Of a stretch of 64,000 nt of DNA, positions 1-49,621 are shown in pieces. The translations under genes were made by a program, and so were the position numbers. The stretch comes from Blasia pusilla (Eukaryota): the NCBI GenBank assembly GCA_050084515.1, contig CM114271.1, forward strand, positions 17,670,001-17,734,000, read 5' to 3'. The first letter of the stretch is position 1. The number at the start of each line of letters is the position of its first letter. The notes under the pieces were generated by a model that worked only from the letters and a program-made list of their open reading frames with translations, did not search any database and was not told where the DNA came from.

Positions 1-1686
1 CCACCCCAAGGAGAGACGCCACCGACTGACGACGGCTATACGTCAAATCAAGACAACACCACCGCTACTAAGTCCTCGTCCAATGTATATTATTTAGAAT
101 GTTATGAAATAGAAGAGGAGGCGGTACCCTCCAAGCCAAGGTCGACTCGAAAGGAAGAGAAGCTAGGTCATAGCACCTTCCAGTTTACAGAAAACATGGT
201 TCAGGAGCAGGACTACGTCCAGGTCAATATTGCAGATCAAAAGTCTCTCCGCCTTTTGGCGGATTTGTCTCCCACCACACTTATAAAATATAAAAGACTA
301 CTGTTTGAGTATTTGGATGTCTTTGCATACTCCATGGATGAAATGACAGGCATTCCCGCACAATATGGTGAACACCGAATTGATCTTAAAGAAGGGGCGG
401 TCCCGGTGCGAATGCGACAATATCGACTGAATCCGAAGTACTCATTGTTAGTCAAGGACGAGATCGATCAGCGTCTCGAGGCAGGAATAATCTATCCGGT
501 GTTAAGCAGCGAGTGGATGTCGCCCATCGTAATTGTACCTAAAAAACAAACGGGCAAAATCCGAGTGTGCCAGGACTATCGGAAATTAAATGCCGCCACC
601 TTAAAAGACCACCATCCTCTACCTTTCACCGGCGGTATTTTGGATAAAGTGGCCGGGCACGAGCGTTATACTTTCTTGGACAAATATTCGGGGTACAACC
701 AGGTATCCATACGAGAAAAGGATCGTCCCCTCACAACGTTCACAACGGACTAGGGAACTTTCGCATATCGCGTAATGCCTTTTGGGTTGTGCAATGCCCC
801 GGCTACTTTCCAACGGATGATGATCTCCATCTTGACAAGGAGAAAGAGTCTGATTCGCTTGATCTGAGAACCTCCATCTTCAAGGAGTTCGTGGAAGTTC
901 TTGGAAATCTTTTAGACGATTTTTGTATCTTGACGGAGGCCAAACATCTGGAAAAGTTAGAGTTAACACTCACGCTTGTCGCATGAAGTGCATTTGTCCT
1001 GCATCCGGACAAATCGTATATCGCTATGAAACAAGGAATTTCTTTGGGACGAGTGTCGGCGCAAGGAATTGAGGTCGACAAGGCCAAGGTGGATATTATC
1101 GTTGTATTGGAACCACCTACTAATCTCCGGGAATTGAGAGGATTCTTGGGACATGTCGGGTACTATCGACGGTTTATTAAAGATTACGGGGTAAAAGCGG
1201 GCGCTCTTACTGCATTACTTAAGAAGACCACCGAATGGGAGTGGACACCAACGTGCCAAGTGGCATTTGACACCTTAAAAGACGCATTGCAAAAAGCTCC
1301 TGTACTTCGGTCCCCCGATTGGACCAAACCCTTCCACATATATGTGGACACATCCTCATTTGGCATTGGAGTAGTGCTCAGCGAATTGGATGAGCACAAA
1401 CATGATTTTCCAATTTACTACGCCGGCCGACAACTATCGGCGGCAGTGCAGAAATATACAACTACCAAACGAGAGGCTTTAGCATGGTCTTCTCGTGTAA
1501 AAAGTTCCGGCACTATTTATTAGGGTACGAATTTGTCTTTCATGTGGATTATTTTGCACTCAAACCCTTGATGGTGAAAGCCGACCTGTCATGACGCATT
1601 GCACGGTGGATCTTGTTGCTACAAGAATTCACATTCGATGTGGTGACCCAGGCCAGCAAGGTGCATACCAATGCCGATTTTGTTTC
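1..1686 (+). mobile_element. Degenerate non-chromoviral Ty3/gypsy (Athila/Tat-like) pol fragment: RT + RNase H, truncated at both ends
   Basis: ORF 196-753 has gypsy RT motifs (SEWMSPIVIVPKK, RVCQDYRKLN, FLDKYSGYNQV). It continues past a stop as GTFAYRVMPFGLCNAPATFQRMM and LDDF. ORF 1026-1523 gives LRGFLGHVGYYRRFIKD and RNase H FHIYVDTSSFGIGVVL, and the fragment ends RWILLLQEF...HTNADFVS. Confidence 0.9.
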
Positions 1687-1734
1687 ACCCCTTTGGACAT
1701 CACCCCGATTGTGTGGTGTATCCCAGATGAGGGT

Positions 1735-2568
1735 ATTCGGGTGTTGGATCTCTTTGGAGGGATCCAAAGAGATCCAACCCCTCCATTTACCCCTCCGTTT
1801 TCCCGACTTGTTTTCTGTGCCCGCCATTAAGGGTTACCTCATTTCCCTACCGAGGGACATTTCATTATTTGGGGCGCGGGACTTCGAGCAGGTAGGGAGC
1901 ATAGACTTGGTCACTCCTGGTTGGTCATGATAGGGCCAGTCGGGTGCTCGACGGAGAAGCGGATTAAATGACTCTCGTTCCATGTTATTTTGGGAAATGA
2001 TGCAGATCTTGCGACACTTGCAAGAGCATCAGTCTTCTCCTCCAACATACATTTTGGAGAAGGTGCCGATTTTGGGCGATTTGGAGTCGCGTGTGGTGAC
2101 AAGTGCACATCAAGTGCGCGCCTGAATCGGCCCAGTAATTTTGTTGGATGGAGCGAGTGTGGGTTCACGAGCACATCGCCCGCGTCTTTGGTGGACCAAC
2201 TTGGGGCCACAGGAGGTATTGCGGAGGGCTTATGCGAGAGTAGAGCATCCCTCCGATTTTTTGGTGGATTCTATATTGCAATAAGGCACGATGATCGACC
2301 GCCATTGATTGTGCTCAACAGAATTGGCATGCAAGGGGCAGCCTTTCCCACATTGGTGAGTTTTCCCGCTTCCTATGCATTCAAGGAGGACGGACCTAGC
2401 TTGGTTTGGGATGACTAGGTGCAGAGGTTGGTGGAGCCCAACGCCAGTGACCAAGCGATGGGATTCCCCATAAGAATAACGGCAATACCGTCACTATCAG
2501 AGGTATCACGATGTCATGTCTTGGGTCAGGCGGTGGACCTGAACTGCTTGATATGGATTTTCAACTTA
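1735..2568 (+). pseudogene. DNMT3-like cytosine-5 methyltransferase domain (inactivated) of retroelement copy 1
   Basis: Motif I IRVLDLFGGI. The catalytic motif has decayed to GWS** (1919-1933, versus GWPCQG in the other copies). AHRPRLWWTNL is readable at ~2170-2203, and motifs IX/X as AMGFPIRIT...HVLGQAVDLNCL. Confidence 0.8.
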
Positions 2569-2865
2569 GGGGTAGTTGAACAGCGTCGTTTGAGGATGTT
2601 GTTGATCACAACAGTTGTGTTGGTGAGCCCCATGCCTACCGTGACGGTTGTGGCAGTGGCTGGGGGCGAGACACGAGCAGATCAACACACCATGGGTGAT
2701 CGAGATAGACAGCCTTGGACTTCTTGGGATGTTTTGCAGGTACGCGAGGAGATGGTAGCCACACCATTGAGCGTGGTTTCGAGTACTACTCATAGAGATC
2801 AGATTTTGCAGTTGGGTCCAGAGGAGCAATCGAGTTCTGCTATTCAAGATGGGGTTGCACCATAG

Positions 2866-4360
2866 CAACCACCTACACCCGCGCCAAAGAGTCCTACTGT
2901 AGTCACGATGGAGACTTGGGAGCTAGATATGGGCCCTAAGATGACTTGAAGAGAGCGGCGCCGGATATATCACTTCCTTAGGAGTTATAGGAGTTGTTTT
3001 GCATTTAGCATGCCGGATTTGAACACCCTGAAGGATCGAGGGATGTGCTTTGAGTTGTTGAGTGACATGCCGATCTTCCCACGACCCTACAGGTATAGTG
3101 ACATGGAGAGGGTTGTGATTCATATAAGGAGGCAGGACTTGGTTGGAGCAGGACTAGTGGAGATGTCGCATGGAGGGTATGCATTTGCCATTGTCATGCC
3201 CACCAAGAAGGATGTGCATGGCAATTGGACACATAGGCGGATGTGTGGAGATTATCGACCTATCAATCAACAGACAAAGTCGGATAGGTATGCCATGCCC
3301 ACGTCTTAGGAGATTTGTGATGCTATTGGGCATGCAAAGGTCTTTAGATCTTTAAGCCGGATACCATCTGCTGCCTATCAGATTGGAGGACATGCAGAAG
3401 ATGGCATTTTGGGGCATCAATCCTTATGGGAAGGATTGCTTGTACCAACGGCGGTTCTTACCATTTGGGATAAAGAACGCCTTGTCTGAGTTTCAGAGGG
3501 TGATGGATAGGATCTACGCAGGTCTCAATTTTGCTAAGTGTTATATTCATGACATCGTAGTCTTTAGTGCCACGGTTGAGGAGCATGAGCGACATCTATA
3601 AGAAATATTTCAATGATTGCAGTTACATGGGTTGAAGCTACATCCAAGCAAGTGCAAGTTCTTCTACGACCAGATTGAGTACTTGGGTCATACGATATAC
3701 CCAGGTGGCCTTGGAGTGCAGCAGATGAAGGTAGAGGTTATGTCACACATTCCACTCCCAACAGATGTGAGTCGAGTTCGTGTATCCATGGGATTGGCGA
3801 ACTTCTATCGATGATACGTCAAGGGTTTCACCTCAATTGCGAAGCCGCTAACCTTGATGACCAAGGTGGATCAAGAGTGGCATTGGGGGGATGAGCAGGA
3901 GAGAGCATTTCAGATGCTCAAGGACAGATTCACGTCCGCGCCCATATTGAGGAGACCGATCAGGGGGCGTCCTTTCCCATTGCATACTGATTGGAGCATG
4001 TTGGGGCTTGGAGCCGTGCTCACCGAGCATGACGATGATGGTAGAGAGATCATGGTGGCTTACGCTAGTCGCTCGAACAACGTTGCAGAGGCAAAGTATA
4101 GCTTGTATGAGGGTGAGTGCTTGGCTACAATGTAGGTTGTCGCACATTTCAAATGTTATCTATTCGGCAATCCCTTTACCATAATTAATGATCATCAGCC
4201 ACTTAAGTGGTTGATGGAGTCCGACAAGCTTATAGAGAATCTTGTGAGGTGGGCTCTTTTCTTGCAGGAGTATGACTTCCAAATGGTGCATAGACTTGGG
4301 ACACTCAACCAGGATGCAGATGGTTTGAGCCGTAACCCATGTCCGAGTCAGCGAGATGCG
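2866..4360 (+). pseudogene. Reverse transcriptase + RNase H of DNMT-gypsy copy 1 (stops and frameshifts)
   Basis: ORFs 3010-3309, 3383-3601, 3617-3814, 3854-4135 and 4211- give consecutive gypsy RT/RNase H motifs. Confidence 0.9.
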
Positions 4361-4679
4361 ACTGGAGCTCTTTGGCATGGTGAGAGTGATGAGGAGTTGG
4401 TGCCAAGGTGGCATGCGTCAACCTATTTGGGCTTGTTGGCTATGAAGAGCCACATTGCTGAGACTTCGATGGCGAGGTTTGATGGAGAGTTCTTAGATCC
4501 AGAGGTTGGCAAGGAGACGATAGGTGGTCGAGACATTCACGACGATGGAGTGGTCTTGGAGTACATGCTTACTGGCAACGTCGCGAGCATAGTGGATGCT
4601 ATAGAGTGGGATCGCATCCTACAACGAGCCATACGGTTCTGATGTGAGGGAACACATGTGTTACGAGTGTGGTAGGATG

Positions 4680-5545
4680 GTAAAGTGCGTATAGTGCCTC
4701 ATCCTTTGGAGAGAGCACGTTTGGTGCGTCATGCCCATGAGGAGTTGGGTCATTTTGGAGTGAAGCGGATATACAACTTGCTCTAGATTCAGTATTGGTG
4801 GCGAGGCATGCAAACTGATATTCACCAATTTGTTGCCTGATGTATGGTGTGTGATTGAGTCAGAGCATCGTTCAATGCTCTGACTCCACAATTACATCCA
4901 CTTCGGCTCATGGTTTAGGTTATAGATGGAGTTTGGATTTTGGAGGACTTTTGCCTTTGACGGAGCGCCATAGTCATTATGTATTGGTGATGGTGGAGCA
5001 CTTCTCGAAGTGGATAGAGTTGGTTGCATTGCCTCACAGAGCGAGTAAGGGAGAAGCGTATGCCTTCCTAGATCGAGTGGTGAGTCATTATGGTGCACCA
5101 GCTGAGGTATTGACAGACAAGGGTACAGAGTTCCGCGGGGAGTTTCAGGCCTTATGTGATCAGGCCCTGATCGACCACCGCACTACTTTACGAGATCATC
5201 TTGAGGCGGATGGACTAGCGGAGCGGGTTGTGTAGACCGTGAAGAGAGGACTATGCAAGTATGGCTTGCAGAGAGGTCACCTAAAAGATTAGGACCTTCA
5301 ATTTCCTTGGTTAGCAATGGGATACAAATTCAGCAGGTAGACATCTTTAGCGACTTTCTTAGCATACTTGTTGCTTTATGGCTGTGGGCAAGATTTACCT
5401 GCGGCCATTCATCGAGATGTTGGTGAGGTGTTGAACCTTGATGACCCTGATGTATGGATGAGAGCATGTTCTCAGAGGGCTGATTTGTTCCAGAGAGTGA
5501 TGCCCATGGCGTTTGAGAACTTGGCGATTGCGCAGCATTGGGATA
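4680..5545 (+). pseudogene. Integrase (HHCC zinc + rve DDE core) of DNMT-gypsy copy 1
   Basis: HAHEELGHFGVKRIY...YWWRGM...CMVCD, followed by ORF 4855-5235 WSLDFGG...VEHFSKWIELVAL...LTDKGTEFRGEF...ADGLAERVV. Confidence 0.9.
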
Positions 5546-5653
5546 CATGGTATGGTTTGTAAGAACCATGTGCGTAATTGTGGGTCGTATCACCTTCCGA
5601 ATATAGTCAGTACAATTGATCCAAGCTTAGCAGTAGTTCTTGCAGGCTTGCGA

Positions 5654-5778
5654 TGTTTGTTGTGTGGTTCTACCCACGGTGCAGCCACTATGCTAGTGTG
5701 TGATGGCATATGGCATGTTTGACGTCACCTCTCACTAGGGTTCCTTAGGGACGATGGATGTGTCACAGATGTACATAG
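5654..5778 (+). pseudogene. C-terminal PHD finger of retroelement Pol (copy 1)
   Basis: CLLCGSTHGAATMLVCD, then after a small frameshifting deletion WHMACLTSPLTRVP*GRWMCHRCT*. This fits the C4HC3 PHD pattern with its typical LxPPLxxVPxGxWxC ending. Confidence 0.85.
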
Positions 5779-10666: not shown

Positions 10667-11880
10667 CTCAGGGTGCCCATAGGTGCTCAATTAAGTCATT
10701 TCTCATACTATATTGGGCTTCCTTATCCATGATCTCCATCATGCCTTCCATCAAATGCTAAAGAGTTAACCCTTGATGAACTCTTGGTTCATGAATGGAA
10801 TGAAACAAAGGTTCTAAATTCATGTCTTTCTCGTCTTCAATGATCAGATTGTGCAATAAAAAAACAAGGCATGCAAATGTTCTTCACTTGCAGTGCATCC
10901 CACATCCTGCACAGATTTGAAATTATTGCAAATTTGGCTTGTAGCACTCCAAATGCCCTCTCCACGTCTTTTCTAGCACTCTCTTGCTTCTTTGCAAAAC
11001 ACTTCTCAGTTTGTGGCTCATGAATATTTTGAAAAAAGATGGAGTACCCTGGGTAAATGCCATCAATCAACAAATAGTACCTTGGGTAAGTAGTTGCATT
11101 GAAAATAAATGAAAGGTCGTCAATATCTTGGCTTAAGAAATTTTCAATGAGAGGACTACGATCCAACACAGTAATGTCGTTATTTGAACCAGGAATCCCA
11201 AAGTGTGCATGCCAAAAATTCAAGGATTGGTCACACACAACCTCGAGCATTATTGAGTTGTCTCCATCCTTATTGTTAAATTGACCCCGCCAGGCAACAT
11301 GACAATTTTTCCCAGTGTAGTGCATGCAATCCAATGAAACGAACATTCCTGGCCATCCTCTACGTTCATTGATTTCCATTTGTCTCTCAATGTCCTCCCG
11401 AGTTGGTTGCCGAAGATAGAAGGGTTCCTAAATTTCCCTAATGGCCATGCAAAATCGTTTCATAGATTCCATAGTTGTGGACTCCCCAATCTTGCAATAT
11501 TTGTTTGTTGCATCTACAACTATGCCATAAGCTAACATTCTTCTTGTTGTAGTCCATTTTTTAATGGGCGAAATGCCTAAACTCCCAGTTGCATCTCTCT
11601 TTTGAACAAAATACATGTCGTGTGAACAGACCTTGTTCATGATTTGCAAGAACAATGACCTCCTCATGCGGAACTGTCTTCTGAACAAAATGTCCCCATA
11701 AACTCGTGAATGTGGGTAGAAAAAGTCTCGAAAGATCCGCTCATGGCCTACCTCTCTTTGTCGGGTTCACATTTGCAACCTTGCCAAGTCGTGAACCACC
11801 ATGGTGAGCAGATCATGTCAACAAAGAAGCTAGTACCTGGGTTGTTTGCTGCATAAATTTGAATTCCATCTGGTCTTCAT
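10667..11880 (-). pseudogene. PIF/Harbinger DDE transposase (HARBI1-like), frameshifted
   Basis: FRRQFRMRRSLF...RMLAYG; RGWPGMFVSLDCMH; GSNNDITVLDRS; YLLIDGIYP; QESARKDVERAFGVLQAKFAII; C-terminal RNDLIEHLW. Confidence 0.95.
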
Positions 11881-16326: not shown

Positions 16327-20542
<4,216 letters not shown>

Positions 20543-25129: not shown

Positions 25130-26413
25130 GTGTCATCTTCAGACGAGGGGGAGCATGTAGAGGAGTTTGTGAGCACATCGCCACACATTGTGAGTGGTCC
25201 TACCACTTGGGCGGATGAGATGGACGATCGGGGTAGAGGACCGCGTAGGTTTTCAGGTTCAATATGCACGATTGAGTTGGACAATTTCATAGCAAAGTTT
25301 AGAAGTTGGTGCGACTCCCAGCAGGCCAAGAACTCTAGAGAGTTCAAGCTGTTTACAGCATGGAACCGTATGTTCCACCATTTAGAGGGGGCACCCATGG
25401 ACGATTATCATGAGTTCTCCCACATAAATGCCCACGAGATTGAGGCATGACGACAATACTACGACCCACACTATGTGTCATGGACAGAGCCTTTCCCAGA
25501 TGAGGAGGAGGAGTCAGGAGAGGCTACTTCCTCTTCCACTAGTGATGTTTTAGGAGGGGTCACTTGCACTGGACCGGTTGCACCGTCTAGTTGGGTTCGT
25601 CCCAGGTTCAAGCCTGTGACTGAGTTCTTTGTTGAGTAGAGGGCGAGCTACTAGGGGGTACGGACAGAGAAGTTGCAGAGCATCCACGACTTCCAGAGAC
25701 GCCCGGGTGAGAGTTTGTGTGAGGCTTACACTTGCTTGCGCCGATTGATCAACGTCACTCAGGGGGTGACAGAGGCTCAGGCTATCTAGTCATTGTACGC
25801 GATGTTGGATCGGACCTTGCGGACACGAGTGTGGGAGGGGGTGCTTCTTATGAACACCTCCCCTACGTTGAGAGATGTTTTTTGGACCGTCGAGAATATT
25901 GAGCGCAACATGGCGGAGGAGAGGGTAGCCACCATAGGTCCTGGGCGAGAGCAGTCACGATTGACTGCACCACCTGTGCGGGAACGTGGACTCCGAGATA
26001 GGTTGACTATGGCACCACAAGCTCTAGGAAGATACCAAGAGGCCGTGCCACAGAGACCTGCGTCTCCATATGCGGCTCAGCAGCTGCCGCCTACTATTAT
26101 TTGTTGGTCATGTGGTGGAGCCCATCATCAGCGCGATTGCACTCGTCAGGGTCATGGACATGTGCCTCATCATGGAGGAGGAGATGGTGTTGCACCAGGA
26201 GGTTATCAGTGTGACTATTGTCAAAGGTATGGTCATACACGCGCAAAGTGTTTCAGTTTACATCCTAAGTTACGTCTAGACCGAGGGCCAGAGGGGGCAC
26301 TAGAGCGAGTAGCCGGTCCGGGTGGGCTAGAGATCGTGCACCATGTGGTCCCATTGGGGACAAGGAGTTGGAGCTGCCCGACATGGTGGTGGAGCTGCCC
26401 GTGGAGGAGGTAG
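25130..26413 (+). pseudogene. Gag with two zinc knuckles (DNMT-gypsy copy 2)
   Basis: IELDNFIAKFRSWCD...HLEGAPMDDYHEF is homologous to copy 3 gag. CX2CX3-4HX4C knuckles lie at ~26100-26250. Confidence 0.8.
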
Positions 26414-27129
26414 AGTCCTACCACTTAGACGCATCGAGGGAGATTTCGGGCGTGAGGCTAGGATGGTTGCTCAGATACATCAGCTAGAAGAACAGATTGC
26501 CACTACGGCATTGAGATTACCCGATTCCGGATCCGTGGCATCGACATCATATGGAGGAGCCAGAGATATGGAGGATCCTGGTTGGATGTGCGGGTTGCCC
26601 AGATGGAGGCCGCCACAATTGTGATGCGTGGAGCAGCCGTAGAGTTGGATCCACACCGAGGGGAAGCCGGGAAACAGACTAGGCTTCCCCAATCTTTCAC
26701 GTTGTCTGAGGCGATGAGGATCCCATCGATGGATCTTGATCAGAGTTCCTGGAAAATTGGTGACGTTTTTGGTGTGCAGGCACGGAGGTTGATGGGAGAA
26801 GCGAGTGCGATAACTCCTATTGTTGATGCACAAGAGGGGCATCTATCAAGCACGTTGTTGGGGGCGGCCACCATTATGTACCGCGCTCCTTTATTTTCTG
26901 CTTCCGATGTTATGGCATTGGGGGGTACGCACGCCGAGGCTTTTTGGCTAACCGCTATGCTATGTGAGCGTGGAGTTAGAGTTACTGCATCTGGTTCAGA
27001 GGTGATTGTATTGAGGTGATGGACCTGCCCTTGGAGCAGATGCACAAGCCGTCCACGTCAGATTCATGGCAGGCTGCGGATGCTTGGATGGCGGAGATGC
27101 CCGCTAGACCCGCGATAGAGCGTGCCATG

Positions 27130-27510
27130 GCTCCTCCTGGTATTGTGTTGGTGGATAACCGAGGAGAGGTCTTCCAATTCGTGAGTCCCGGAGGTAGAGC
27201 TTTTAGTCCACAACGCGTCTTTTTGGATTCAAGAGCGGAACTCTTGATGTTGGGGAAAGCGTCATTTAGAGGATTGGGCTTGACGAGATCCGATGTGGAG
27301 CGTTGTCCATTCCTGATACAAACATCCTTGGGTGGATCAAGTACCACACAATATATCACCCGACATGAGGTCATGGTGAGGATTTGCCCAAGACATCCTA
27401 CATATGAGTCTGTGGTGCGAGCCAAGGCGATAGTGACTGATATAGAGTCCTACGACCTCTTGGTTGGTGAAGTTGTGTAATACTCGATGGGGTTTTCCCT
27501 GGATTACTGG
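27130..27510 (+). pseudogene. Retropepsin-type aspartic protease (DNMT-gypsy copy 2)
   Basis: RVFLDSRAELLMLG (LDSGA-like) and C-terminal SYDLLVG. Confidence 0.7.
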
Positions 27511-27939
27511 GAAGAGTCAGCGTCCTACAAACTAGGATGGCAGTCAAGTGATGGGCGCCTTAGCTCATTACCCGTTCGATTCACATGTGCAGTGATCGAG
27601 CAACGGCCAGGAGAGATGGCGACCTTAGCAGCATTTAGCAGTGCCATCACTTGGCGTAGTGATTTGATTGAGGGACATGTCCATGCAAAGGATACTCCCG
27701 TTCCTGACATTTCTATGGACAGGAGTGTTATGGTAGCTGCATCATTCCGTGGAGGACAGATGCCGTTGTGGGGCTCGACTGAGGAGCTTCAACGAATGGC
27801 ACATGAGCACGTGCAAACCGCGTGGAGCGAGGCGTTTGCACCGGCGCATGACGAGTCTGAGGAACCCGAGATAGTAGGGAGTGCTAGGATCACACCCTTG
27901 GATACCACACCCATTGTGTGGTGTGCCCCGGAGGAGGGT

Positions 27940-28885
27940 ATTCGAGTGTTAGATCTCTTTGGAGGGATTAGCAACGGGTTAGCAGCTGTTTTGCAATCAA
28001 GAGTGCGAGTACAACAGTACATGTATGTGGAGAGTGATGATGTTGCAAGGCGCATCTCACTACAACATGTGGCGCAGTTACGCCTATGTTTTCCCGACTA
28101 TTGTCTGCGTCCGCGGTAAAGGGATACCAGAGTTCCCTACCGAGGGATATTTTGTTGTTGGGGGTGCAGGACTTAGAGCGGGTAGGGACCATTGATTTGG
28201 TCATTTCTGGTTGGCCATGTCAAGGCCAATTGGGTGTTGAACAATGCAGCGGGTTGGATGATACTCGGTCCAAGTTGTTTTGGGAGATGTTGAGGGTCTT
28301 ACGGTAGTTGCAAGAGCACCAATCTTGTTCTTCAGCCTACATTTTGGAGAATGAGCCCATCTTAGGAGACTCCAGGTCACGGGTGGTGACGAGTGCTCAT
28401 CACGTGCGTCCCTGGATCGGCCCAGCAATGTTCTTGGATGCGGCGAGTGTAGGTTGTAGAGCCCATCGCTCGCGTTTATGGTGGACCAACTTGGTGCCCC
28501 ATGCGGTGTTACGGAGGGCGTATGCAAGAGTCAAGCGTCCCTCCCATTTATTAGTGGATTCCATTCTGGATCCATGTCGTCGATCAAAGGCAGTGAGGCA
28601 CGATGATCGACCACCGTTGACTGTGATCAACAGAGTAGGCAGGCCGTGGGCAACCTTTCCCACGTTTGTGAGTTTTCTTGCTTCCTATGCATACAAGGAG
28701 GCTGGTCCTAGCTTGGTTTGGGATGACTAGGTTCAGAGGTTGGTGGAGCCCCACGCCAATGAGAGAGAGCGGGCGATGGGATTTGCCCTAGGAGTGATGG
28801 CAATTTGGTCACTATCAGAGGCATCACGACGCCATGTCTTGGGTCTGGCGATGGACATGAACTGTTTGACATGGATCTTTAGCTT
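27940..28885 (+). pseudogene. DNMT3-like cytosine-5 methyltransferase domain of retroelement copy 2
   Basis: Motif I IRVLDLFGGISNGLAAVLQ..YMYVE; motif IV DLVISGWPCQG (28209-28226); motif VI AYILENEP; motif VIII RAHRSRLWWTNL; motif IX ERERAMGF; motif X RHVLGLAMDMNCL. Confidence 0.9.
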
Positions 28886-30973
28886 GGGAGTGGCTGAGCA
28901 GCGTCAGATGAGATTGCGATAGATCACAGCGGTCGCATTGGTGAGCCCCATGCCTACCGAGACGGTGGAGGTAGTGGATGGGGGCCAGACCCGAGGAGAT
29001 CGACACACCATGGGAGATCAAGAGAGACACCCTTGGACTTCTTGGGATGTCTTGCACGTACGCCAGAGATTATAGCCACACAATTGAGCGTGGTTCCGAG
29101 CACTGCATGTGGTGGAGATCAGAGTTTGCAATTGCCTGCAGGACAACGGTCAAGTGTTGTTGTTCGAGACGGGGTTGCACCATAGCAACCACCGATACCA
29201 GCGCCGGAGAGTCCCACCGTAGTCACGATGGAGACTTGGGTGTCAGATATAGGCCCTTAGTTGACAGGAGGATAGCAGCGCCGAATACATCAGTTCCTCA
29301 AGAGTTATAGGAATTGCTTTGCATTTAGCACGGAGGATTTGGGTACGCTGAAGGGACCGGGGATCCGCATTGAGTTTTCGAGTGATACGCCAATCTTCCG
29401 ACGACCCTACAGGTACATAGATATGGAGAGGGCTTTGATTGAAAGTAGGAGCCATGACTTGGTTGGAGCACTCCTCAAAGTGGATCGAGTTGGTTGCATT
29501 TCTTGACAAAGCGAATGAGAGAGTAGCTTATGCCTTCCTTGACAGATTGTTGAGTCATTATGGCGCACTAGGCTGAGGTGTTGACAGACCAGGATACAGA
29601 GTTTTGGGGTGAGTTCCATGCCTTGTGTGATCAGGCGCTGATCGACTATCACAGGACTTCGCGAGATCATCTTGAGGCGGATGGATTAGCGGAGAGAAAG
29701 TTATATAAACGGTGAAGAGGGATTTATGCAAGTATGGCTTGCAAAGAGGTCACCTAGGAGATTGGGACCTCCAGTTGCCCTCGTTGGCGATGGGATACAG
29801 ATTCAACATACAGGCATCCTTAGCATCTTTTTCACCGTACTTGCTAATTTATGGCCGAGAGCCATATTTACCTACGGCCATTTGTCGAGATGCTGGTGAG
29901 GTGTTGGACCTTGATGATCCAGATGTATGGATGCGAGCATGTCCTCAGAGGGCTGAGTTGTTTCCAAGAGTGATGTCCATGGCGTTCGAGAACTTGGCGA
30001 TTGCGCAACATCGCCTAACAAAATCTCTATGCATATCAAACTGCAATATGTAGTCTCAAAGCCCTTGCTGATGCAGCCTCAAAGCTCTTGACAATGCCCA
30101 ATTGTAAAATTATCGATTATAACCATGGATTTGAGCCAATTTTGACATACTGCAAGGACTTGAAGGATTTAGGATGCAGCCTATTGAAAAGCGTCGATTT
30201 GAAGCTCTTACTTTGTTCTAGATCGCCATCGGTAAAAAAAAAAAAGGATTTCCCCATGGAATATAATTCACACGGTCGGAATCAAAGGTTATCTTCTATT
30301 GATAAGGCGTGATTGAGTGACAACCGAGTAACAAAAGCTGCACGACCTTTCCAAATCTTCCTCTCACAGGTACATAAAGTCGTTGATTCATCAACTTGAG
30401 CTGATTCCTCCGTAGCATTTCTAAGGTCCTGCATCCCATCTGCTCCCAAAATCAAAGCAGATGGGAGCAAATTCGGTCCATGCGCCTGTAGGACTTACTT
30501 CCAGACCCTATGCATCAGACTCATGGCGCACGACATCAAATTAGATGTCAAGACCGTGGGAAGGTGGTGCATGCAATATTCGATCAAGATCACATACACG
30601 CAATGAATATACTTTCCTCCATCGCCGATGCTGGGCGGCAACCATGAAACTCACTTGCATGTGTGTGTCGGTGTTGTGGAAGTAACATATTCTTGTGGAA
30701 GAGCTCCAGGCCTGAGGTTTGAACTAGAGGTTGAGGCTAAGGCCGAGGCATGAGGCTAAGGGAGATGCATGAGGGAGGGTTGCAAGCGATTCCAATCCAG
30801 CTGCATAAGCCTAGGGCGGGATCACTAGACAACCAGGTAAGTTTTTGCCAATTTTGCACTCCCTACATGTAATCTACGATCTCCCTCAATTGTATGTACC
30901 TTTGGTAACACATGCATGGCCCACTCAACCAATATATCGTCACCGGTAAAGTTGCAACGGTAAAATTTAACGT

Positions 30974-31676: not shown

Positions 31677-32123
31677 TGTCGTGCGCCTACTCTCCTTGAA
31701 CGTTAATCTTGTTTGTTGCGGAAGCGTGCGTTCAGTAGGTCACGCTCTCAACGCTGATCTGCCTCCAAACACGCACTTCGGTTAGTCGGGTCTTGGATCA
31801 ATCAGCGGGATTACTTTCCGAGTTCTCGTCTCGGACTCTCTCTTCAAGCTCAACCTTCCTAGTTTCGCGGTTCACGTTCCTGAACCGACCAGAAAGTCTA
31901 TCCCAAGTTTTTCGAGACTTGCCCGTGTTGGAAACCGCGAAACAAGGAAGGTTGAGCTTGAAGAGAGAGTCCGAGATGAGAACTCGGAAAGTAATCCCGC
32001 TGATTGATCCAAGACCCGACTAATCGGCGCGTGTTTGGAGGCAGATCATCGCGTTGAGAGCGTGACTCATCAACGACGCCGCAACAAACAAGATTAACGT
32101 TCAAGGAGAGTAGGCGCACGACA
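31677..32123 (+). repeat. Aberrant 5' LTR: inverted copy of the LTR 3' end (31677-31872) joined to the last ~250 bp of the LTR (31876-32123)
   Basis: 31677-31872 is the reverse complement of ~38325-38520. 31876-32123 matches ~38269-38520 directly. Confidence 0.92.
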
Positions 32124-32125
32124 CG

Positions 32126-37489: not shown

Positions 37490-38520
37490 TGTCGTGACCC
37501 TCATAACCAAACAACACCAAATACGCGCCAAGCGAAACATCAGAGTCAAAGGAACTCACGCCGCGAGGTTTGCGCTTTGGAGAGGCGTTTGGAAGAGTCT
37601 CTTGGAAAAGTCTAAGAGACGAAACGCGGAACAGAGTTGTGCGTTTCATGCGTGAGTGGTCGCAACCAGGAAACCTAGACCAAACGCGAGCCGAGGCTTG
37701 AGATGAGTTGAGTCTTGGAGGTTGGTTGCCAAAGAGGTGAGAACCAGTTTGGAACACGACTAGCGTTTGGGAGAATCTGACTGTGTTTAGGACCATAACG
37801 TTGAGCTACGAGATGCGTTCGGGACAAGTAAGAGCGCGTTGGAAAGCTGATCTCAAGACGCTTCCAACGCATCAAAGATCTCAGAAAACGCATAAGTACA
37901 GGCTGAGATATTGGCCGAAAACGATTCAAAGAGCAATCGGGTTGAGGGCCAATTGGAGAGGCCCGGGTGTCTTTCCCTAAATGTAGGGGGCCCCCGGAGA
38001 TCCCCAGAAGTACTAGTAAGGGGAGTACCTTCTCTGAGATGTCTCGGGAAACGAAACCCCATTTTGGGCGCCAAACGGGGTTTTAGAGGCACGAGATGAA
38101 ACGGGAGTTTGGCGCGGAAACCCGAAACCCAAACCTGATCCAAGGGAGTGGACTTTGTACGCCACACTTGGATTCCAACCCGAGATTCACTTCGTGCGAG
38201 TCTTGGTGAGGAACTCATTGGATGTTCATCGACGATTGGAACCGCTTAGGCGCTAAACGCCGCTTTCAGTTCCTGAACCCGACGAAAGTCTGTCCCAAGT
38301 CTTTCGAGACTTGCCGGTGTTGGAAACCGCGAAACTAGGAAGGTTGAGCTTGAAGAGAGAGTCCGAGACGAGAACTCGGAAAGTAATCCCGCTGATTGAT
38401 CCAAGACCCGACTAACCGAAGTGCGTGTTTGGAGGCAGATCAGCGTTGAGAGCACCACCTACCGAACGCACGCTTCTGCAACAAACAAGATTAACGTTCA
38501 AGGAGAGTAGGCGCACGACA
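37490..38520 (+). repeat. 3' LTR of the chromovirus (1031 bp)
   Basis: TGTCGTG...CACGACA terminal inverted ends; follows the PPT and is followed by the TSD. Confidence 0.92.
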
Positions 38521-40472
38521 CTTTCATAAGTCCTCTAAAATTGCGTGCCCTTGATCCAAATTTAGCACAAGATATAAAAGGACTTACATTTATATATGTT
38601 CAATTCGTAGAAGACACGTGATTTATACATACAGATGTTGCCATTGTGGTATAGTCACCAATAGTTTATCAAAGGTAATGGAGCCGAGATCCTTTTTTTG
38701 GTCTGAAAATAGAGTGTAAATATAACTCAATTTATTACAACCATGACACTTGGTATCCCAACCTTATTAGTCATACTTAACAAGATTCAATTGTCAAGCC
38801 TCATTGTGTGTGATTGGCCTGGGTGATCTATAATTGGATCTACCAATAGTCTATAAAGATGCCCCACTCATGCATTAGCCCCCCTTCAAACCTCATGCGG
38901 CATGAAGTTTATCCATAGGGACATGGATGATCCAACATCCTCACACTCTCCTCCAAAAATTGGCACACAATCAAGATGGGGTCCAAGGCTATCAATGAAA
39001 CACTCTCCATAACCTTAAACTCCTTAGATTTTCTCGGCCTTTTTCAAAGACCTCACTCCAAGTCATCTAAGCATGCTCTCTGACACTGTATCAAAACTCC
39101 TTTAGCAAACCCCATAGTGGTACTACAATGTCTTCTATTCTGATAAAATCAGTGTTTTGGACGTTTAAGGTATGATTAGTTCCCCAAGAGGATCATCTTG
39201 TTCTCTCAAAACATAAATATGTCAATCTAATGCTTGCAAGCTGACTGAAGTTATTTCAACACTCTATAACTCACATTTTCATTCCTCTATTCTTCTCTTA
39301 GTAGGACATATAATTTCCTTGTGAAGTGTCTTCTTAGTGAAATTCGGAGTTGGTTCTCTCGAATCTAAGCATGACTTATCCAAAAGAGCCTCAAAGAGAA
39401 CACAACGTTTACATGGCTCTTCCTAGAGTCAAAATTCAATCCGTCATGGCACGTCACATATTCTCTATCTACCCAATTTATTAACTCGTATTCACAGTGC
39501 ACTCTTTCTTTATCAAAAATCATACTAACAAATTCTTTCCATATAGTAGACCGAATCAGATAGAGACTACCACCATCTTCGTACAACAGGAAATAATGGA
39601 ATGCTTACTATTTCATTCCAACAACATCTACACGCTTACCCAAATGGTGGTTCTTTCTCCTTAGAGTCTTCTTTAAATCCTACTTTTAGAAGGATCCTAT
39701 CTTGAGATATAGATCAATTTTTTGGACCAAGATGTCTCTTAAGATATTGCTAACTGTTTGATGAAGGGTTAATATTGCTTTCCTGGTGATCCCGCTGAAT
39801 CAGTTGATCCTACGGCCGCGTTCTTTCTAAGCATCGTGCCCCTATTTTTCTTCTTGCCCAACTGTTGTGTCATTCCCATACCAACTCCAGTCTTTGGACT
39901 CCTATAGTCTTCGTTCCGAATAAGTTTAAGTCTTGGCTACAAAGACAAACTATCTTCGCAAAGACTATTTATTTCTCCTTACTTGGTCTTTGTTGAAGAG
40001 TCTTTGTTCCGAAGACAAAATATCTTAGTTTTCACTTATTGTCTTTAAAAATATTCTTCTTTGTCTATCCAAACTTACTCCAAATCCATTTTCGCTTTCC
40101 TCAAAGAAAATTCCTTGTTCTCAACAACTTGTTCGTCTTCTCATTGGAATTCAAATCAATTCATTGTTCCAATAGTCAAATATTTCTCGAATTTTTTTAC
40201 ATTCCCAAACAATGCCTCTTCCTTGCTCTGTCTTCGTACATACAAAACCCTTATTTTACTTAAAAGTCTTACATTTTACAAAATTTTAAGAGATAATAGG
40301 TATCACAGGTACCTCCCCTCCATCGGCTAGTGAGGCCATCATCACACTCCACTTCATAAAAGTCTCACCCTCTAGTATATCCTCTACATGAACATGACCT
40401 TCCATCTGGAAAAGTGATTGTGTTGTTCATACTAGAGTCCACCCCTTACCAACATAAAAAGGCGGTTGCATG

Positions 40473-42024
40473 CTAACGTGGCACCATCTCCTCATCAACC
40501 TCGCCATGCCATCTAGCCCGAGTTGCATCCTCTTGGCTAGTACATGGGTTCCTACTCAACCCATCAGCATCAAGGTTGGCAACTCCAGGTCTATGTACCG
40601 CTTGGAAATCATAATCCTGTAAGATAAGAGCCCACCGTGCAAGCTTCCCTATAAGCTTGTCAGACTCCATCAACCACTTGAGCGGTTGGTGATCAATAAC
40701 AAAGATAAATTGTGTGCCAAACAAGTAACACCTAAAGTGTGCCACAGCCCACACTATTGCCAAGCACTCTCCCTTATATGAACTATAGCGCGACTCCGGT
40801 GCATTATTTGAACGACTTGCATAGGCCACCACAAACTCCATGTACTCATCATCATGTTGTGTCAACACCGCTCCAAGTCCCAACCTACTCCAATCAATGT
40901 GTAACTGAAATGGGCGCCCTCTAATAGGTCTCCTCAAGATAGGCGCCGACACCAGCTGGGCCTTAAGCTCCACAAAAGCTCTCTCCTGATCATCTCCCCA
41001 GTGCCACTCTTGATCTGATTTCAGCAATTGGTTCAAAGTCTTTGCCAGAGCACTAAATCCCTTCAGATACCTCCGACAGTAGTTCGCCAATCCCATGAAT
41101 GCCCGAACTCTACTCACATCTATCGGACACGGAATAAGTGCAATATCCTCCACCTTTGTTTGCTGAACTCTCAAACCACCTAGATAGATCACATGACCCA
41201 AATACTCAACATCCTCATGGAAGAACTTACACTTTCCTGGATGCAAACGTAGACCATGAGCTTTCAACCGCTCAAACACCATCTGCAAATGTATCTGATG
41301 CTCCTCCACCGTGTTACTCAACACCAAGATATCATCAATGTAACACCGAACAAAACCCAACCCTGCTAGGATCCTGTCCATCACTCTCTGAAACTCGGCA
41401 GGTGCATTCTTCAACCCAAAGGGTAAGAATTTCCACTGGTACAAACAATCCTTGCCATGAGAGTTGACACCCCAAAATGCTTTATTGGCCTTGTCACTCT
41501 CACGAATCGGCAATTGATGGTATCCTGCATGAAGATCCAAAGTAGTGAAAATCTTTTCTTGTCCCACCACATCAAAGATCTCCTCAGGTGGAGGCATGGC
41601 ATACCTATCGGCCTTGGTTTGCCGATTGATAGGACGGTAATCTCCACACATCCGCCTATCCTGTATAGTTGCCATGCATATCCTTTTTAGCAGGCATGAC
41701 AATGGCTGATGCATACTCTCCATGTGACAACTCCACTAATTCAGCCTCCAAAAGGTCCAACGTCCTCCTCTGAATCAAGTCCCTCTCCATATCACTATAT
41801 CGGTAGGGACGACGGAAGATTGGCGTATCACTAGCCAAATCAATATGTATACCAGGTCCAACCAGAGCACCCAACTCCTTCATGCTAAAGGCAAAACAAC
41901 TCCTATAAGCACGTAGGAACTGTGTCAAGCATCGTTTCTCACCTCCCATAAGCTTGGACCTAAGTAATGGCTCCCAAGTCTCCTCCACTAGCACACTAGA
42001 GGGAGAGGACGATGCCATTGGCTG
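40473..42024 (-). pseudogene. Reverse transcriptase + RNase H of DNMT-gypsy copy 3 (one frameshift near 41660)
   Basis: ORFs 41656-42018 and 40473-41723 carry intact RT motifs LDLHAGYHQ, PFGLKNAPAEFQR and CYIDDILV. Confidence 0.93.
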
Positions 42025-42274
42025 CTATGCAACCCCCTCACAAGATGGTATACCCTTAGCTACACCATCATCTGAGCAAATAACTTTTCCACTCGCATGA
42101 GCAACCAACTCCACATGCCCAGCCATTACATCCTATTTACTCCAAGGATGCAAAATACTACTCTCCTCGCCCCTAGCCGATGCCTCTACCGTCTCGGTAG
42201 CCATCGAGCTCATTACAAGGGGTGGAAGACCCACAGACATAGTCCAAATTCGACGCTGCTCGGCCATACCAAGA

Positions 42275-43198
42275 ATCAAAATCCAAGTCAAACAATTCAG
42301 GTTCATGGCCGAACCCAACACATGACGTCATGAAGCCTCAGAAATGGAAGCAACCGCTGTCATACCAGTAGCAAATCCCATCGCACGCTCTCTCTCATCA
42401 GCGTTAGGCTCCACCAATTGTCGCACATGAGAATCCCATACAAGTCCGGGACCACCTTCCATGTAGGCATGTGACGAGGGAAAACTCAAAATGTGGGTAG
42501 TGCCATCCTTGGCTGGCCCACACGGTTCACCACTGCCATGGATGACCGATCAATAACCCTCACCACCAGAGAAAGTCGCCCAGTATCCAAGATACTATCC
42601 ACTGTAAGGCAAGGATTCCGCTGCATTGCATCATATGCTCGACGTAGAACCTCCCTAGGCAACAAGTTTGTCCACCACAAGCGTGGACGATGTGCACGCA
42701 AGCCAACTCGCGCTGCATCCAACAACACCGCTGGTCCAATCCAAGACCACACCTCATGAACACTTGCCATCATCCAGGTCCGAGTGTCACCCAAGAATGG
42801 AACATTCTCTAGAATGTAAGCTGGAGCACGTGCCTGATGAAGTTGAAGATGTCGTAACACCAGTAACATCTCCCAAAAAAATCAAGACCTAGGATCGTGT
42901 AATCTCTCACCACGATCTGCACGTGTATGACCCTGACATGGCCATCCAACAATCACCAAATCCACAGGACGAACCCTCAACAATGCAATGTGTGACGACA
43001 AAGCATGCTGGTACCCACGAATAGCTAATCGCGGCAATTGTCAAGATATCTCCGCATCAACAAATGAATATGTCGGGATGAGACTCTCTGGGCCATCTCA
43101 TCTTGCTCCACATACACGTATCTCCGCACAGGAATACCGGTCTGCAACATTGCAGCCAAACCAGTGCTAATCCCACCAAAGAGATCTAACACACAAAT
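42275..43198 (-). pseudogene. DNMT3-like cytosine-5 methyltransferase domain of retroelement copy 3
   Basis: ICVLDLFGGISTGLAAMLQTGIPVRRYVYVE; DLVIVGWPCQG (42947-42930); AYILENVP; RAHRPRLWWTNL; ERERAMGFATGMT; HVLGSAMNLNCLTWIL. Confidence 0.92.
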
Positions 43199-44388
43199 GC
43201 CCTCAAGAGGATACTGCCATACAATGGGTGTAGTATCCAAAGGGGATAACCCAACTCGACTAGAGGTAGGACTCCGCCGTGGGGCCTCCTCTTCCTCGTG
43301 AGGTATAATAGCCTCACACCAAGCCTCCTGCACTAGGCGATCAGCCTTCTGCCATAGTGCAGCGCCTTAACTCCAAAGTGGCACATCCGACAATGAGGAT
43401 GCCACTGCTGCAAAACTAGGGACCTCCTCTACCTCCTCATTGATAGGAGAATCCATAGCATAAACATTATCCTCCAAAAAGTCTCTTGGCCAAGTGACTA
43501 CTCCACTAAAACCAGCCACAGATGCTAACACTGTTGGGGAAGACCCTCCTGGTCGAGCCCCATTAATAAATCTCATAGGAACTTGGCTCATATGTCCATC
43601 CCCGGACTACCAACCAGGTCTATAAGACGCTGTCTCAGTCCAGTAATCCATCTGAAAACCCATCGAGTACAATACTGCTCCTCCAACTAGTACATCATAC
43701 GACTCGGCTAATCTAACTACTGCAGGTACTCCCAACCGGGAGCTATCAATCGCATGATCGGATCTCAATTGTATAGAAAACTTCTCCCGTGTCATGAATT
43801 GAGACCTATCATTGGCTTCTCCAAGTGAGGTTTGAATCTAGAATGGGCAAGGCTCAAGCTTTGACCTCCGAATACCCAAACCAATACATGCCGCCTTTCC
43901 TGGGCACCAAAGTCTAACAAGACTCTATCTGGTCTATACACTTGTCCTATAGGACTCACCAATCGGAATATCCCACTCCGATTGTCCAACATACATATAC
44001 TAGGTGTAAGCCTCTCACAATCAATGGCTAGCCGGGCTGGTAATGCATCCATCTTCACCGATGCTGCTTACCAAGTAGCAATGGTACTAAATGCTACACC
44101 TGACATAGAGGGCCGCTCCACTGCAACACCCTCATCCACCTCAGCACGTGTAGCAGTAATACCCCCACCTTCAGACAACGTGACTGCTAGCTGAAATACA
44201 GGAGCTAAGTCAACTCCTAAAGCCATAAGTTCCATGGCCGAAAACAATGGGTATCCCAACACCGAAGTTGCCATCTGCAATAGTGCATGGGATGGTGCAT
44301 CCGTGTCTACTACACGCGATGTAGATGCCTCAATCCCCACTATCGGCTCAATAGGCTGCGTAGGAACCATGGATGGAGTCCTAAGCAC

Positions 44389-44668
44389 CTCAGACAACAA
44401 GAATGACTGGGGAAGCCTAGTCTGCCTCCCAGCCCCATCCCTCTGTGGGTCCAACTCCAAAGTATCACCACGTGGCTCTGACGCTCGAGTGGCTCCTCTC
44501 GTAACTGTTGCTGATGCCTCAACATGTGCTCAGACAACAAGAATGACTCGGGAAGCCTAGCCTGCCTCCCAGCCTCACCCCTCTGTGGGTACAACTCCAA
44601 AGTAGCACCACGTGGCTCTGGCGCTCGAGTGGCTCCTCTCGTGACTACTACTGATGCCTCGACCTGTG
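44389..44668. repeat. 140-bp imperfect tandem duplication in the gag-protease linker of copy 3
   Basis: ctcagacaacaagaatgact...gatgcctc(a/g)ac(a/c)tgtg begins at both 44389 and 44529. Confidence 0.9.
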
Positions 44669-44696
44669 ATGCACTCGCCATATAAGAGAGATCATC

Positions 44697-46212
44697 CTAT
44701 CCATAAGAGGCGGAAGCCCCTGCTCCCGAACCTGATCTATGTTGGATACCAGCCATAGTAGCCAACTTTTGCTCCAACTGCTCAATCCTGGAAACCATAG
44801 CTGACTCTGTTGTAGTGGTAGGGGTGGCCACCGTAGGCTCTCCAACCACTGGTCTACCTCTACCACCCCAACCACCTCTATCACCTCGGCCTCTCCGAGC
44901 TACTCCACCACGGCCGTGGCTTGATCTCAACTCTGGATGGAGATCAAAGCAACGCTCTCGAGGATGACCTGGTCTCCCGTAATGATCACACTAAGTTGGG
45001 GCCGATTGAGGCCCATCCTCCAAAGTCCATCTCCCATACTCTTGGGGACAAAAATTCCTAACATGATCACCTCCACATGTCCAACATGACTGTCCTTGCT
45101 GCGGGGAAGCAAATGAAGGCAATGGTCTCTGCGCAAGTGTCCCTCTAGGACCTGACTGAGGTCGTGTGTACCCCCCACTACTCCCACTACTACTACCACC
45201 ACCACTACTACTGGCGTGAGGTGGGCTGCTGAACATGAGAAGTAGTAGTTGTATCCCTACTGAATGCGGATGTCACCACTCTCTCCTTCACCATGTTAAG
45301 CTCAATCTTCTCAGATAGAGCAAACACATGGGTCAATGTGGGTGAATCATCACTCGTAAGAGTAACATCACATACCCTTCGGCGCAACTCTCTATCCAAG
45401 ATCCCATACTAAAACAGGACTGCCTAAGCCTTAGTCACACCCTGGGTAACAGAAATCAAGCGTCCCATACAAGTGTATGCCTCACAAAGACTCTCACCAG
45501 TCTTTCGATCAAATTCCTGAAGACTCCTCAACTTCTCTATCTTCACTCCCTGATAGTTCTTCTTCAACCTCTTGAAGAACTCTGCAACCGGGCTAAACGA
45601 TGGTGGGGCACTAGTACCTCCACAAGTACCCCCATTGGTACCTCCATGGGTACCTCCACTGGTACCCCCACTCCGGCTCATACTCGTACCACTCAACGTC
45701 GGGCTGGCTGGCATAGTAGGAGCACTACTACCAATACCACCATGGGTGATAGACACATAGCCAGGAGACCAATATTGTCTCCACACCTCAATCTCACCAA
45801 CATGGTCCTTCCTAAACTCATGGTAATCATCCATGGGTGGTCCCTCCAAGTGCTAAAACAACCCCTTCGAAGCCAAGAAGGGTGTAAACAACGTGGCCTT
45901 CCACAACATTTGCATATCACACCACGTATCAAACTCATGCATGAAGTCCTCCAACTCAATGGTGCCCACTGCACCCAAGTATTGTTGTGGGTCCTTCATG
46001 GCCCCAGATATTCCGTCCATGTCCCAAATCAATGGAGTTGCAACACTCGATAACAACGTAGAAGACTCGGTGTTTGGAACACCCTCGTCCTCCTCTTCAT
46101 CAACCCTCGGAAGTGGAAAAGGTAGCCGATACGTCAATCCACTCCGTGTAAAACCACCACTGTCCGCACCACGGTCCCCAACCACACCAACAAACAGCTC
46201 CGTGATGACCAA
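44697..46212 (-). pseudogene. Gag with zinc knuckles (DNMT-gypsy copy 3)
   Basis: IELEDFMHEFDTWCD...LEGPPMDDYHEF...EKLRSLQEFDRKTGESL; CWTCGGDHVRNFC. Confidence 0.8.
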
Positions 46213-49218: not shown

Positions 49219-49621
49219 ATTTTCAACATCCACTTCTCTGAACACCATTAATCTGATCGACCCCTTGTATGAGGAGAACCCTAGATCGATGGTTTCCACT
49301 TAGACGTCGGAGGAGTCATAGTAATATGACCTATGTGGTTTTAGGAGTAGCGTTACTATGATTATCTAATCATATATAGATAATATAGTGTTAGGGTGCA
49401 AATTTTCCCATTAATAGAAACGAAGAAAAATAGATAAAAAACCATAGTTTGGTGAGAAGTGAAATAGTTAGGCCCCTGCGGTAGCGCGTTCTCGTATGTC
49501 GAGTTATCCCTATGCTCGAGTTCCATCGAAGCTCTTCTATGAGCGCACAGACGGACTATGCCACTTTGTATCTTTAATTTTTGTAATGATTTCAGTGATT
49601 TCGCCACTTTCTGTTTTCTCA
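49219..49621 (+). repeat. Copia 5' LTR (start uncertain by a few bp)
   Basis: aacatccactt...ttttctca, repeated at 57348-57770. Confidence 0.85.

Follow-up and report, generated by a model that had tools for sequence, protein, structure and literature searches.

Long terminal repeat (LTR) retrotransposons of plants are generally described as elements with one open reading frame (ORF) that are unable to use translational recoding (PMC5580714; 10.1101/2022.12.06.519325). Members of the so-called 'Plants cluster' usually have a single ORF (10.1101/2022.12.06.519325). The consensus at which plant viruses, tobamoviruses among them, read through a stop codon efficiently is UAG_CAR_YYA (PMC3542737). 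The present analysis deals with a stretch of 64,000 nucleotides (nt) from Blasia pusilla (assembly GCA_050084515.1, contig CM114271.1, positions 17,670,001 to 17,734,000 of the forward strand), referred to as the window. It holds three decayed copies of a Ty3/gypsy LTR retrotransposon that carries a DNMT3-like DNA methyltransferase (DNMT). In each of them an amber codon followed by a CARYYA hexamer lies between the methyltransferase and the reverse transcriptase (RT). The three sites are probably relics of a readthrough switch of the tobamovirus type (UAG-CARYYA) that was ancestral in a bryophyte Ty3/gypsy lineage with DNMT3 between protease (PR) and RT.

The type I signal of the tobamoviruses operates in the replicase of tobacco mosaic virus and in the coat-protein extensions of benyviruses and pomoviruses. 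Its UAG with CARYYA is matched in three of the three window copies, and it yields a minor, C-terminally extended product carrying the polymerase, as is predicted here (PMC3542737). No RNA structure 3' of the stop is needed for this signal, and none was detected in the window copies. Indeed, the 120 nt after the stop fold no better than shuffled sequences (z = 0.99, 0.35 and -0.16), an absence that is weak evidence as the copies are decayed. It fits a type I signal that consists of sequence only. A structure-dependent (type II or III) signal found no support in the same folds. The type III signal of murine leukaemia virus (MLV) was also considered and rejected, the spacer CAACCACC or CAGCCAAU not being purine-rich and no stable structure having been found (pseudoknots lie outside the folding model). 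The bryophyte case differs from the tobamoviral one in its host, a chromosomal LTR retrotransposon and not an RNA virus, and in its hexamer, CAA/CAG-CCA as opposed to CAA-UUA.

Among plant retroelements, SIRE1, a Ty1/copia Sirevirus of soybean, is comparable in being an LTR element with a single in-frame stop between two coding regions, which is suppressed (PMC2829016). In SIRE1, however, the stop separates pol from an env-like ORF, whereas here it lies upstream of RT, where it is proposed to control the Gag:Pol ratio. The bryophyte element, moreover, belongs to Ty3/gypsy and not to Ty1/copia. An in-frame stop between Gag and Pol, with Gag-Pol made by programmed readthrough and rarer than Gag, is described for MLV, Tca2, Skipper and the fission-yeast Ty3/gypsy elements Tj1, Tosmo and Tcry (10.1101/2022.12.06.519325). 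Around the stop, the three fission-yeast elements show strict nucleotide conservation (10.1101/2022.12.06.519325). In all of these systems the stop precedes PR, whereas in the bryophyte element both PR and the captured DNMT3 lie upstream of it. The contexts differ as well: UAG with a pseudoknot in MLV, GAA-TGA-CT in the yeast elements and CARYYA here. A first-pass annotation of this DNA had called the site an unusual place for a gag/pol switch. This holds for plant elements, and retroviruses offer precedents: PR lies in Gag, upstream of the recoding site, in avian sarcoma/leukosis virus, and beta- and deltaretroviruses use a pro/pol frameshift.

As for the methyltransferase, KnitGypsy-Dnmt3 and the streptophyte Gypsy-DNMT3 elements are likewise Ty3/gypsy LTR elements with a DNMT3-type enzyme (PMC5890265). 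'Streptophytes (Gypsy-DNMT3)' are also mentioned in 10.64898/2026.05.21.726589. In the Klebsormidium Gypsy-DNMT3 the methyltransferase is part of the Pol ORF (PMC5890265), whereas here it stands upstream of RT and is parted from it by the TAG. In this respect the window copies depart from the class; in distant relatives such as P0056, DNMT and RT are fused. No sequence named Klebsormidium was present among the matches to the family protein queries. In the literature covered (supplements were outside its scope and most subscription papers beyond reach), the available texts describe neither a stop or readthrough in DNMT-bearing Gypsy elements nor bryophyte hosts of such elements.

Three decayed copies and their junctions

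All three copies are relics of a Ty3/gypsy element with a DNMT3-like methyltransferase. The layout of the family was obtained from translation with X at stops, from Pfam and from tblastn with intact relatives. It consists of gag with a CCHC knuckle, a PR-like region, a C5 DNA methyltransferase, a linker, the TAG, RT, ribonuclease H (RNase H), integrase (INT) and a PHD domain. The succession of RT, RNase H and integrase typical of Ty3/gypsy is found in the homologues P0007 and P0013. Pfam gives RVT_1, RT_RNaseH, Integrase_H2C2 and rve in this order in copy 1, and RT followed by RNase H in copy 3. The methyltransferase of the intact relative P0009 has its best matches in the PDB among DNMT3A/3B (E = 8.4e-11). 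The corresponding family PF00145 is found in homologues and weakly in copies 2 and 3, and the motifs I, IV (PCQ), VI (ENV) and IX-X can be read. Homologues display the CCHC knuckle and an LLDSGA motif, and copies 2 and 3 align to these homologues; no protease family was detected in the homologue P0010 by Pfam at E <= 0.001.

Copy 1, on the plus strand, retains a DNMT3-like C5 methyltransferase at 1681..2739, delimited by translation and by tblastn of residues 863-1245 of P0010 from Marchantia. It spans motif I (DLFGGI) to motif X, and its PCQ motif is broken by two stops. A poorly conserved linker, recognised by translation, follows at 2740..2862 and ends in QDGVAP. Downstream of the junction, the region 2872..5772 contains RT (~3010-3697), RNase H (~3886-4273), integrase (~4711-5544) and a PHD remnant (~5567-5772), all assigned with Pfam and with tblastn of P0007 and P0129, and it is crossed by many stops and frame changes. 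Directly upstream of the methyltransferase lies a different Ty3/gypsy RT-RNase H (265-1690, plus strand), which meets it near 1681-1690 and is only 33-37% identical to the RT of the family. Because this foreign segment adjoins the DNMT with neither gag-PR nor an LTR in between, copy 1 is chimeric or recombinant. Its order of RT, RNase H and DNMT resembles the distant type P0129 (2720 amino acids, aa), in which the methyltransferase lies between RNase H and integrase.

Copy 2, also on the plus strand, has remnants of gag (CCHC), the PR-like region and the DNMT3-like domain at 25214..29081 (tblastn of P0010 residues 2-1253; weak Pfam match to PF00145, E = 1.4e-3). At 29192..30023, its RT N-terminus is joined to the C-terminal part of the integrase by an internal deletion of ~1.85 kb, as seen from the repeat offsets (26320 vs 24473) and from tblastn. 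Copy 3 lies on the minus strand. Its gag, PR-like region and DNMT3-like domain extend over three frames at 42082..46020 (tblastn of P0010 residues 1-1258; PF00145, E = 3.7e-3). A short linker, RT and RNase H occupy 40302..42018 (RVT_1, E = 2e-29; RT_RNaseH, E = 3.1e-31; tblastn of P0007), and the copy is truncated after RNase H. In its gag/PR-side region, a tandem duplication of 140 nt (44389-44528 and 44529-44668) has 90.7% identity. The first-pass annotation had placed Gag-PR-DNMT upstream of the stop in the element; this stands for copies 2 and 3 and fails for copy 1, with its foreign RT-RNase H in place of gag-PR.

The copies are dead and express nothing functional. Compared with intact relatives, they have 14 in-frame stops in 1083 aligned codons (copy 1), 9 in 1279 (copy 2) and 16 in 1749 (copy 3), and frameshifts and truncations occur as well. 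No LTR-like direct repeat pair was found around any of the three, all of which are truncated or chimeric, a result that bears on these relics and not on their family. Copies 1 and 2 are 77% identical in DNA, and each is 66-72% identical to copy 3. The copies are depleted in CpG (observed/expected 0.49-0.71) and rich in TG/CA, as expected of methylated, deaminating DNA.

The amber stop of copy 1, established by direct reading and translation, is the ORF1/ORF2 boundary at 2863..2865. It is followed by CAACCA at 2866..2871, which fits the type I readthrough context as defined in PMC3542737. The homologous codons are the TAG at 29183..29185 in copy 2, with CAACCA at 29186..29191, and the TAG at 42025..42027 in copy 3, with CAGCCA at 42019..42024. 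The junction of copy 1 reads GGG GTT GCA CCA TAG CAA CCA, all 21 nt of which are identical in copy 2. That of copy 3 reads GGG GTT GCA TAG CAG CCA on the minus strand, the TAG running from 42027 to 42025. The three TAG-CAR-CCA sites reported by the first-pass annotation, each matching UAG-CAR-YYA, were confirmed in sequence and coordinates by this reading. Its statement that RT follows every TAG in the same frame is likewise correct, as by translation and tblastn the RT N-terminus of every copy lies in the frame of its TAG. The C-terminus of the methyltransferase is also in this frame in copies 1 and 3. In copy 2, the DNMT ends in frame 3 (up to 29081) and the TAG lies in frame 2, with a change of 1 nt in between. 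Extra stops are present past the TAG, namely a TGA near 2947 in copy 1 and two TAGs near 29255 and 29270 in copy 2. Copy 3 and its type have an ATG 6 nt after the stop (TAG CAG CCA ATG). At this place copies 1 and 2 have CCT/CCG, and their first in-frame ATG comes 15 codons downstream.

In active elements, the UAG would have ended ORF1 (Gag-PR-DNMT3) while standing in frame with ORF2 (RT-RNaseH-INT-PHD), and the CAR-CCA after it would have supplied the tobamovirus-type (type I) context. Most ribosomes would stop at the UAG and release abundant Gag-PR-DNMT3. In a few per cent of cases an amino acid would be put in at the UAG and translation would continue to the full Gag-PR-DNMT3-Pol fusion; the usual suppressors of UAG in plants are cytoplasmic tRNA-Tyr and tRNA-Gln. 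The outcome would be structural protein in excess of enzymes, as retroelements need, with the methyltransferase in the abundant product. The downstream ORF, with RT, RNase H and integrase, is indispensable to the element. Readthrough itself, its efficiency, a Gag-like stoichiometry of the methyltransferase and its packaging are what we infer for the active element.

Ancestry of the stop codon

Among the 1083, 1279 and 1749 aligned codons, this TAG is the only in-frame stop that all three copies have in common. One further stop is common to two of them, a TAG at 2416-2418 and 28728-28730 (plus strand) inside the DNMT (WDD*). It had been pointed out in the first-pass annotation and is real. Copy 3 has CAT at this codon and the relatives have various residues, which suggests that copies 1 and 2 descend from an already defective progenitor or that a parallel hit occurred. 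The pattern TAGCARYYA is not enriched in the 64-kb window: its 6 matches compare with 3.71 expected, and 6 or more occur in 14 of 100 shuffles. The signal therefore lies in the position of the TAG. Another match inside copy 3, at 44181-44189 on the minus strand, is out of the local coding frame.

The codon is part of a conserved nucleotide island, GA(T/C/G) GGG GTT GCA (CCA) TAG CA(A/G) CCA, around which the linker barely aligns between copies. Copies 1 and 3 agree in 19 of 21 bases at the junction when the 3-nt indel is set aside. This indel was placed by reading, as MAFFT misplaced it and made the TAGs look offset. Between copies 1 and 2, the only pair whose sliding profile was used, the 21-nt identity is 1.00 just before the TAG vs 0.52 further up the linker.

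Relatives were compared as proteins, with TAG deduced from substitution spectra and CARYYA from the residues Q-P only. A search with the copy 1 junction returned gene models of the same architecture from Sphagnum fallax, Marchantia polymorpha and Calypogeia fissa. With the copy 3 junction, the best 150 of 794 protein matches were listed, and with the read-through ORF P0015 the best 120 of 272, many of them from Sphagnum species. The eight best Sphagnum-type ORF matches are 78-89% identical to copy 3 in protein. The matches listed for the copy 3 junction form four groups: ORFs ending one residue short of the site (...PKVLA), ORFs starting at a Met three codons on (Met +3), a few that read through, and distant fused ones. 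For a tally of codon states, the ORFs taken had 60% or more identity to P0166 and a length of no more than 400 aa; 59 of them could be classified at the junction codon. A Gln codon of RT in the motif 'PINR-Q-TK' served as control and is called site B.

At the junction codon, 13 ORFs read through (and one gene model more, with a gap), 2 end at the site and 43 start at Met +3. A stop is accordingly counted in 45 of 58 Sphagnum-type ORFs, the 2 ending exactly one residue before the codon. The residues in the 13 read-through ORFs are Y (4), L (4), W (2), E (1), Q (1) and S (1). At site B, 74 ORFs read through, with Q (63), H (4), I (2), L (2), K (2) and R (1), while 34 end at the site and none starts at Met +3. 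All six residues at the junction codon can be reached by a single base change from TAG, and from no other codon. Of the alternatives, TAA is excluded by W, TGA by Y, E and Q, CAG by Y and W, and TGG by Y and E. The share of Q differs strongly between the two codons (1/13 vs 63/74; Fisher p = 8.6e-8). An ancestral TAG is favoured over CAG>TAG because the read-through residues are neighbours of TAG and not mostly Q as they are at site B. After the site, Q-P is found in 12 of the 13 read-through ORFs, which fits CAR-CCN. The alignment of this codon across copies and related species, which the first-pass annotation had suggested, was run at the protein level in this way, and both the 45 stops among 58 ORFs and the spectrum of TAG neighbours favour an ancestral TAG. 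Its caveat that CAG>TAG is a deamination hot spot here is largely answered by the comparison with site B.

On this codon evidence, TAG is the state of the active ancestors of the window copies and is kept across subfamilies in moss-type genomes. By its residues, site B itself resembles either a hot spot of CAG>TAG or a null allele that was copied widely. Its stop yields many ORFs of 131-132 aa, including named Sphagnum gene models (motif 'RPINR-Q-TK'). In the window, the codon at site B is a sense codon, CAG in copy 1 (near 3290) and CAA in copy 3 (near 41620).

The end of ORF1 is also conserved. Three gene models from the copy 1 junction search end in the linker, with ...PPLEQVS, ...PPLEK and ...SLEVVV. 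Four models run on into RT, each leaving out a block around the site, as expected of a gene predictor that avoids a stop, and other models start within the RT N-terminus. Among representatives at 50% identity, ORF1 ends at the same aligned place with SLEKVA (Marchantia), PPKIVA (Calypogeia), SLEDVA, SLKDVA, SLQDVA or PKVLA. The end PLEQVS belongs to Marchantia Mp_4g09160, of 1278 aa, in a cluster of 18 members. The relatives have a '-V-A' terminus of ORF1, and the window copies have DGVAP* and EGVA*. Judged by the position of this end, the TAG would also be kept in liverwort lineages.

Competing explanations and points against a switch

An independent deamination of methylated cytosine in each decaying copy, turning CAG or TGG into TAG at a hot spot, is very improbable. 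It would suit the CpG depletion of the copies, the Gln, Trp and Arg codons behind many of their stops and the recurrent CAG>TAG at site B. The spectrum of read-through residues does not agree with it, given the scarcity of Q at the junction compared with site B, and Y and E are not one step from TGG, nor W and Y from CAG. Moreover, the Gln-to-stop rates of copies 1, 2 and 3 are 3/47, 2/53 and 4/73, the product of which puts three independent hits at ~1.3e-4, were the codon Gln. The same spectrum bears on the possibility that the TAG was an inactivating mutation, arisen once in a defective progenitor and spread by copying in trans, so that it would be family-wide and never functional. The read-through state is Gln at site B, whereas at the junction codon it is a scatter of TAG neighbours. 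Null alleles can indeed be widespread, as the stop at site B in 34 of 108 Sphagnum-type ORFs shows, and copies 1 and 2 share an evident one at 2416/28728. The junction stop, however, is present in subfamilies only 66-72% identical in DNA, and ORF1 ends at the same residue in the Marchantia and Calypogeia lineages. A null allele is unlikely to last through such divergence when the RT proteins of moss-type and liverwort copies are still 72-79% identical. In addition, CARYYA is expected after a random stop in about 1 of 512 cases (arithmetic with uniform bases). A copied null allele is improbable on these grounds.

The TAG could also be ancestral and a true boundary between ORF1 and ORF2, with Pol made by termination and reinitiation at a nearby AUG, by internal initiation, or from a spliced or subgenomic RNA. 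This is unlikely, though several facts fit it. In copy 3 and its Sphagnum-type relatives an ATG lies 6 nt past the stop, with 43 ORFs starting there, and splicing balances Gag and Pol in some plant Ty1/copia elements (PMC5580714). The ATG at +3 is not conserved, however, being absent in copies 1 and 2, while the CARYYA hexamer is kept in 3/3 copies. Neither reinitiation nor splicing needs the strict in-frame relation of the two ORFs. Pol made alone would also be without the Gag fusion that usually carries it into particles.

Readthrough of an ancestral UAG-CARYYA signal remains the preferred reading, against which several points have to be held. The sequence, the frame relation, the TAG as ancestral state of the family and the conserved ORF1 end are matters of observation; the switch built on them is a proposed reading of the sequence. 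The window copies are dead and give no evidence of function themselves, and copy 1 is without gag-PR. Copies 1 and 2 have the plainly inactivating TAG at 2416/28728 in common and are perhaps to be counted as a single witness. If they are one lineage, a coincidence among ~100 susceptible codons is not rare, and the window alone cannot settle ancestry. Their subfamily is, moreover, without close relatives in the protein collection (17 matches, the best with 39-60% identity), so that the test at the level of the family rests on the copy 3 (Sphagnum-type) subfamily and on the liverwort ORF1 ends. The liverwort evidence consists of gene-model ends, not of a codon or a frame relation. In the Sphagnum-type set, counting the 43 Met +3 starts as stops depends on the start choice of gene callers, and the third base of the Pro codon outside the window is not read from the residues Q-P. 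The stop at site B is shared by 34 of 108 ORFs without having a function, which makes sharing alone weak evidence. The ATG 6 nt after the stop in the copy 3 type makes reinitiation conceivable.

A further point concerns distant relatives. DNMT and RT lie in one uninterrupted ORF in P0056 (2188 aa), P0020, P0034 and P0115 (Closterium sp. NIES-53). Among the matches listed, these fused relatives have 29-36% identity, a different linker and no stop. The stop is consequently not obligatory for the DNMT-RT architecture, and it appears, from this comparison, to be a derived feature of the bryophyte clade.

Neighbouring features and meaning for the lineage

The window contains other elements as well. 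An ordinary Ty3/gypsy element without DNMT lies at 32688-36677 (plus strand), with gag, CCHC, protease, RT, integrase and a Tf2-type SH3 domain. The PR ORF of this element overlaps its RT ORF in another frame. On either side, at 31677-32124 and 38265-38521, are matching segments of 90-97% identity, one pair inverted and one direct. A fragment of a PIF/Harbinger-type 'Plant_tran' DDE transposase is found at 10837-11427 (minus strand). Further downstream, 49219-49624 and 57348-57773 form a direct repeat pair with 74% identity, ~8 kb apart, and may be the LTRs of another old element. Between them, at 52909-54357 (minus strand), lies an open frame of 482 aa with no Pfam match. An open frame of 415 aa at 18315-19562 (minus strand), with a DEAH-type helicase C-terminal domain and an HA2 domain, is probably an exon of a host gene.

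The architecture of the family is hidden in current gene models of Sphagnum, Marchantia and Calypogeia, which split the elements or splice around the stop. If the switch is real, its conservation in a bryophyte Ty3/gypsy lineage would be a clear added case of recoding. It would also mean that a chromosomal element makes independent use of the tobamovirus readthrough signal, and it would give plant Ty3/gypsy elements their first recoding switch downstream of a captured chromatin enzyme. The element's own DNMT3 would be part of the abundant product, and RT-INT part of the rare one. The position of the switch bears on the role of the transposon-borne methyltransferase, be it self-silencing, targeting or host manipulation. 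For tests in Marchantia or moss systems, a simple handle is given by the stop and the six bases after it.

A wider interpretation, on which our judgement is evenly balanced, is that of a moss and liverwort Ty3/gypsy lineage with a captured DNMT3 in its 'Gag arm' and a leaky UAG-CARYYA stop after the DNMT acting as a Gag:Pol rheostat. The methyltransferase would then be made at the level of a structural protein and possibly be packaged. If this is true, new cDNA or the host genome could be its substrate in every cell that expresses the element.

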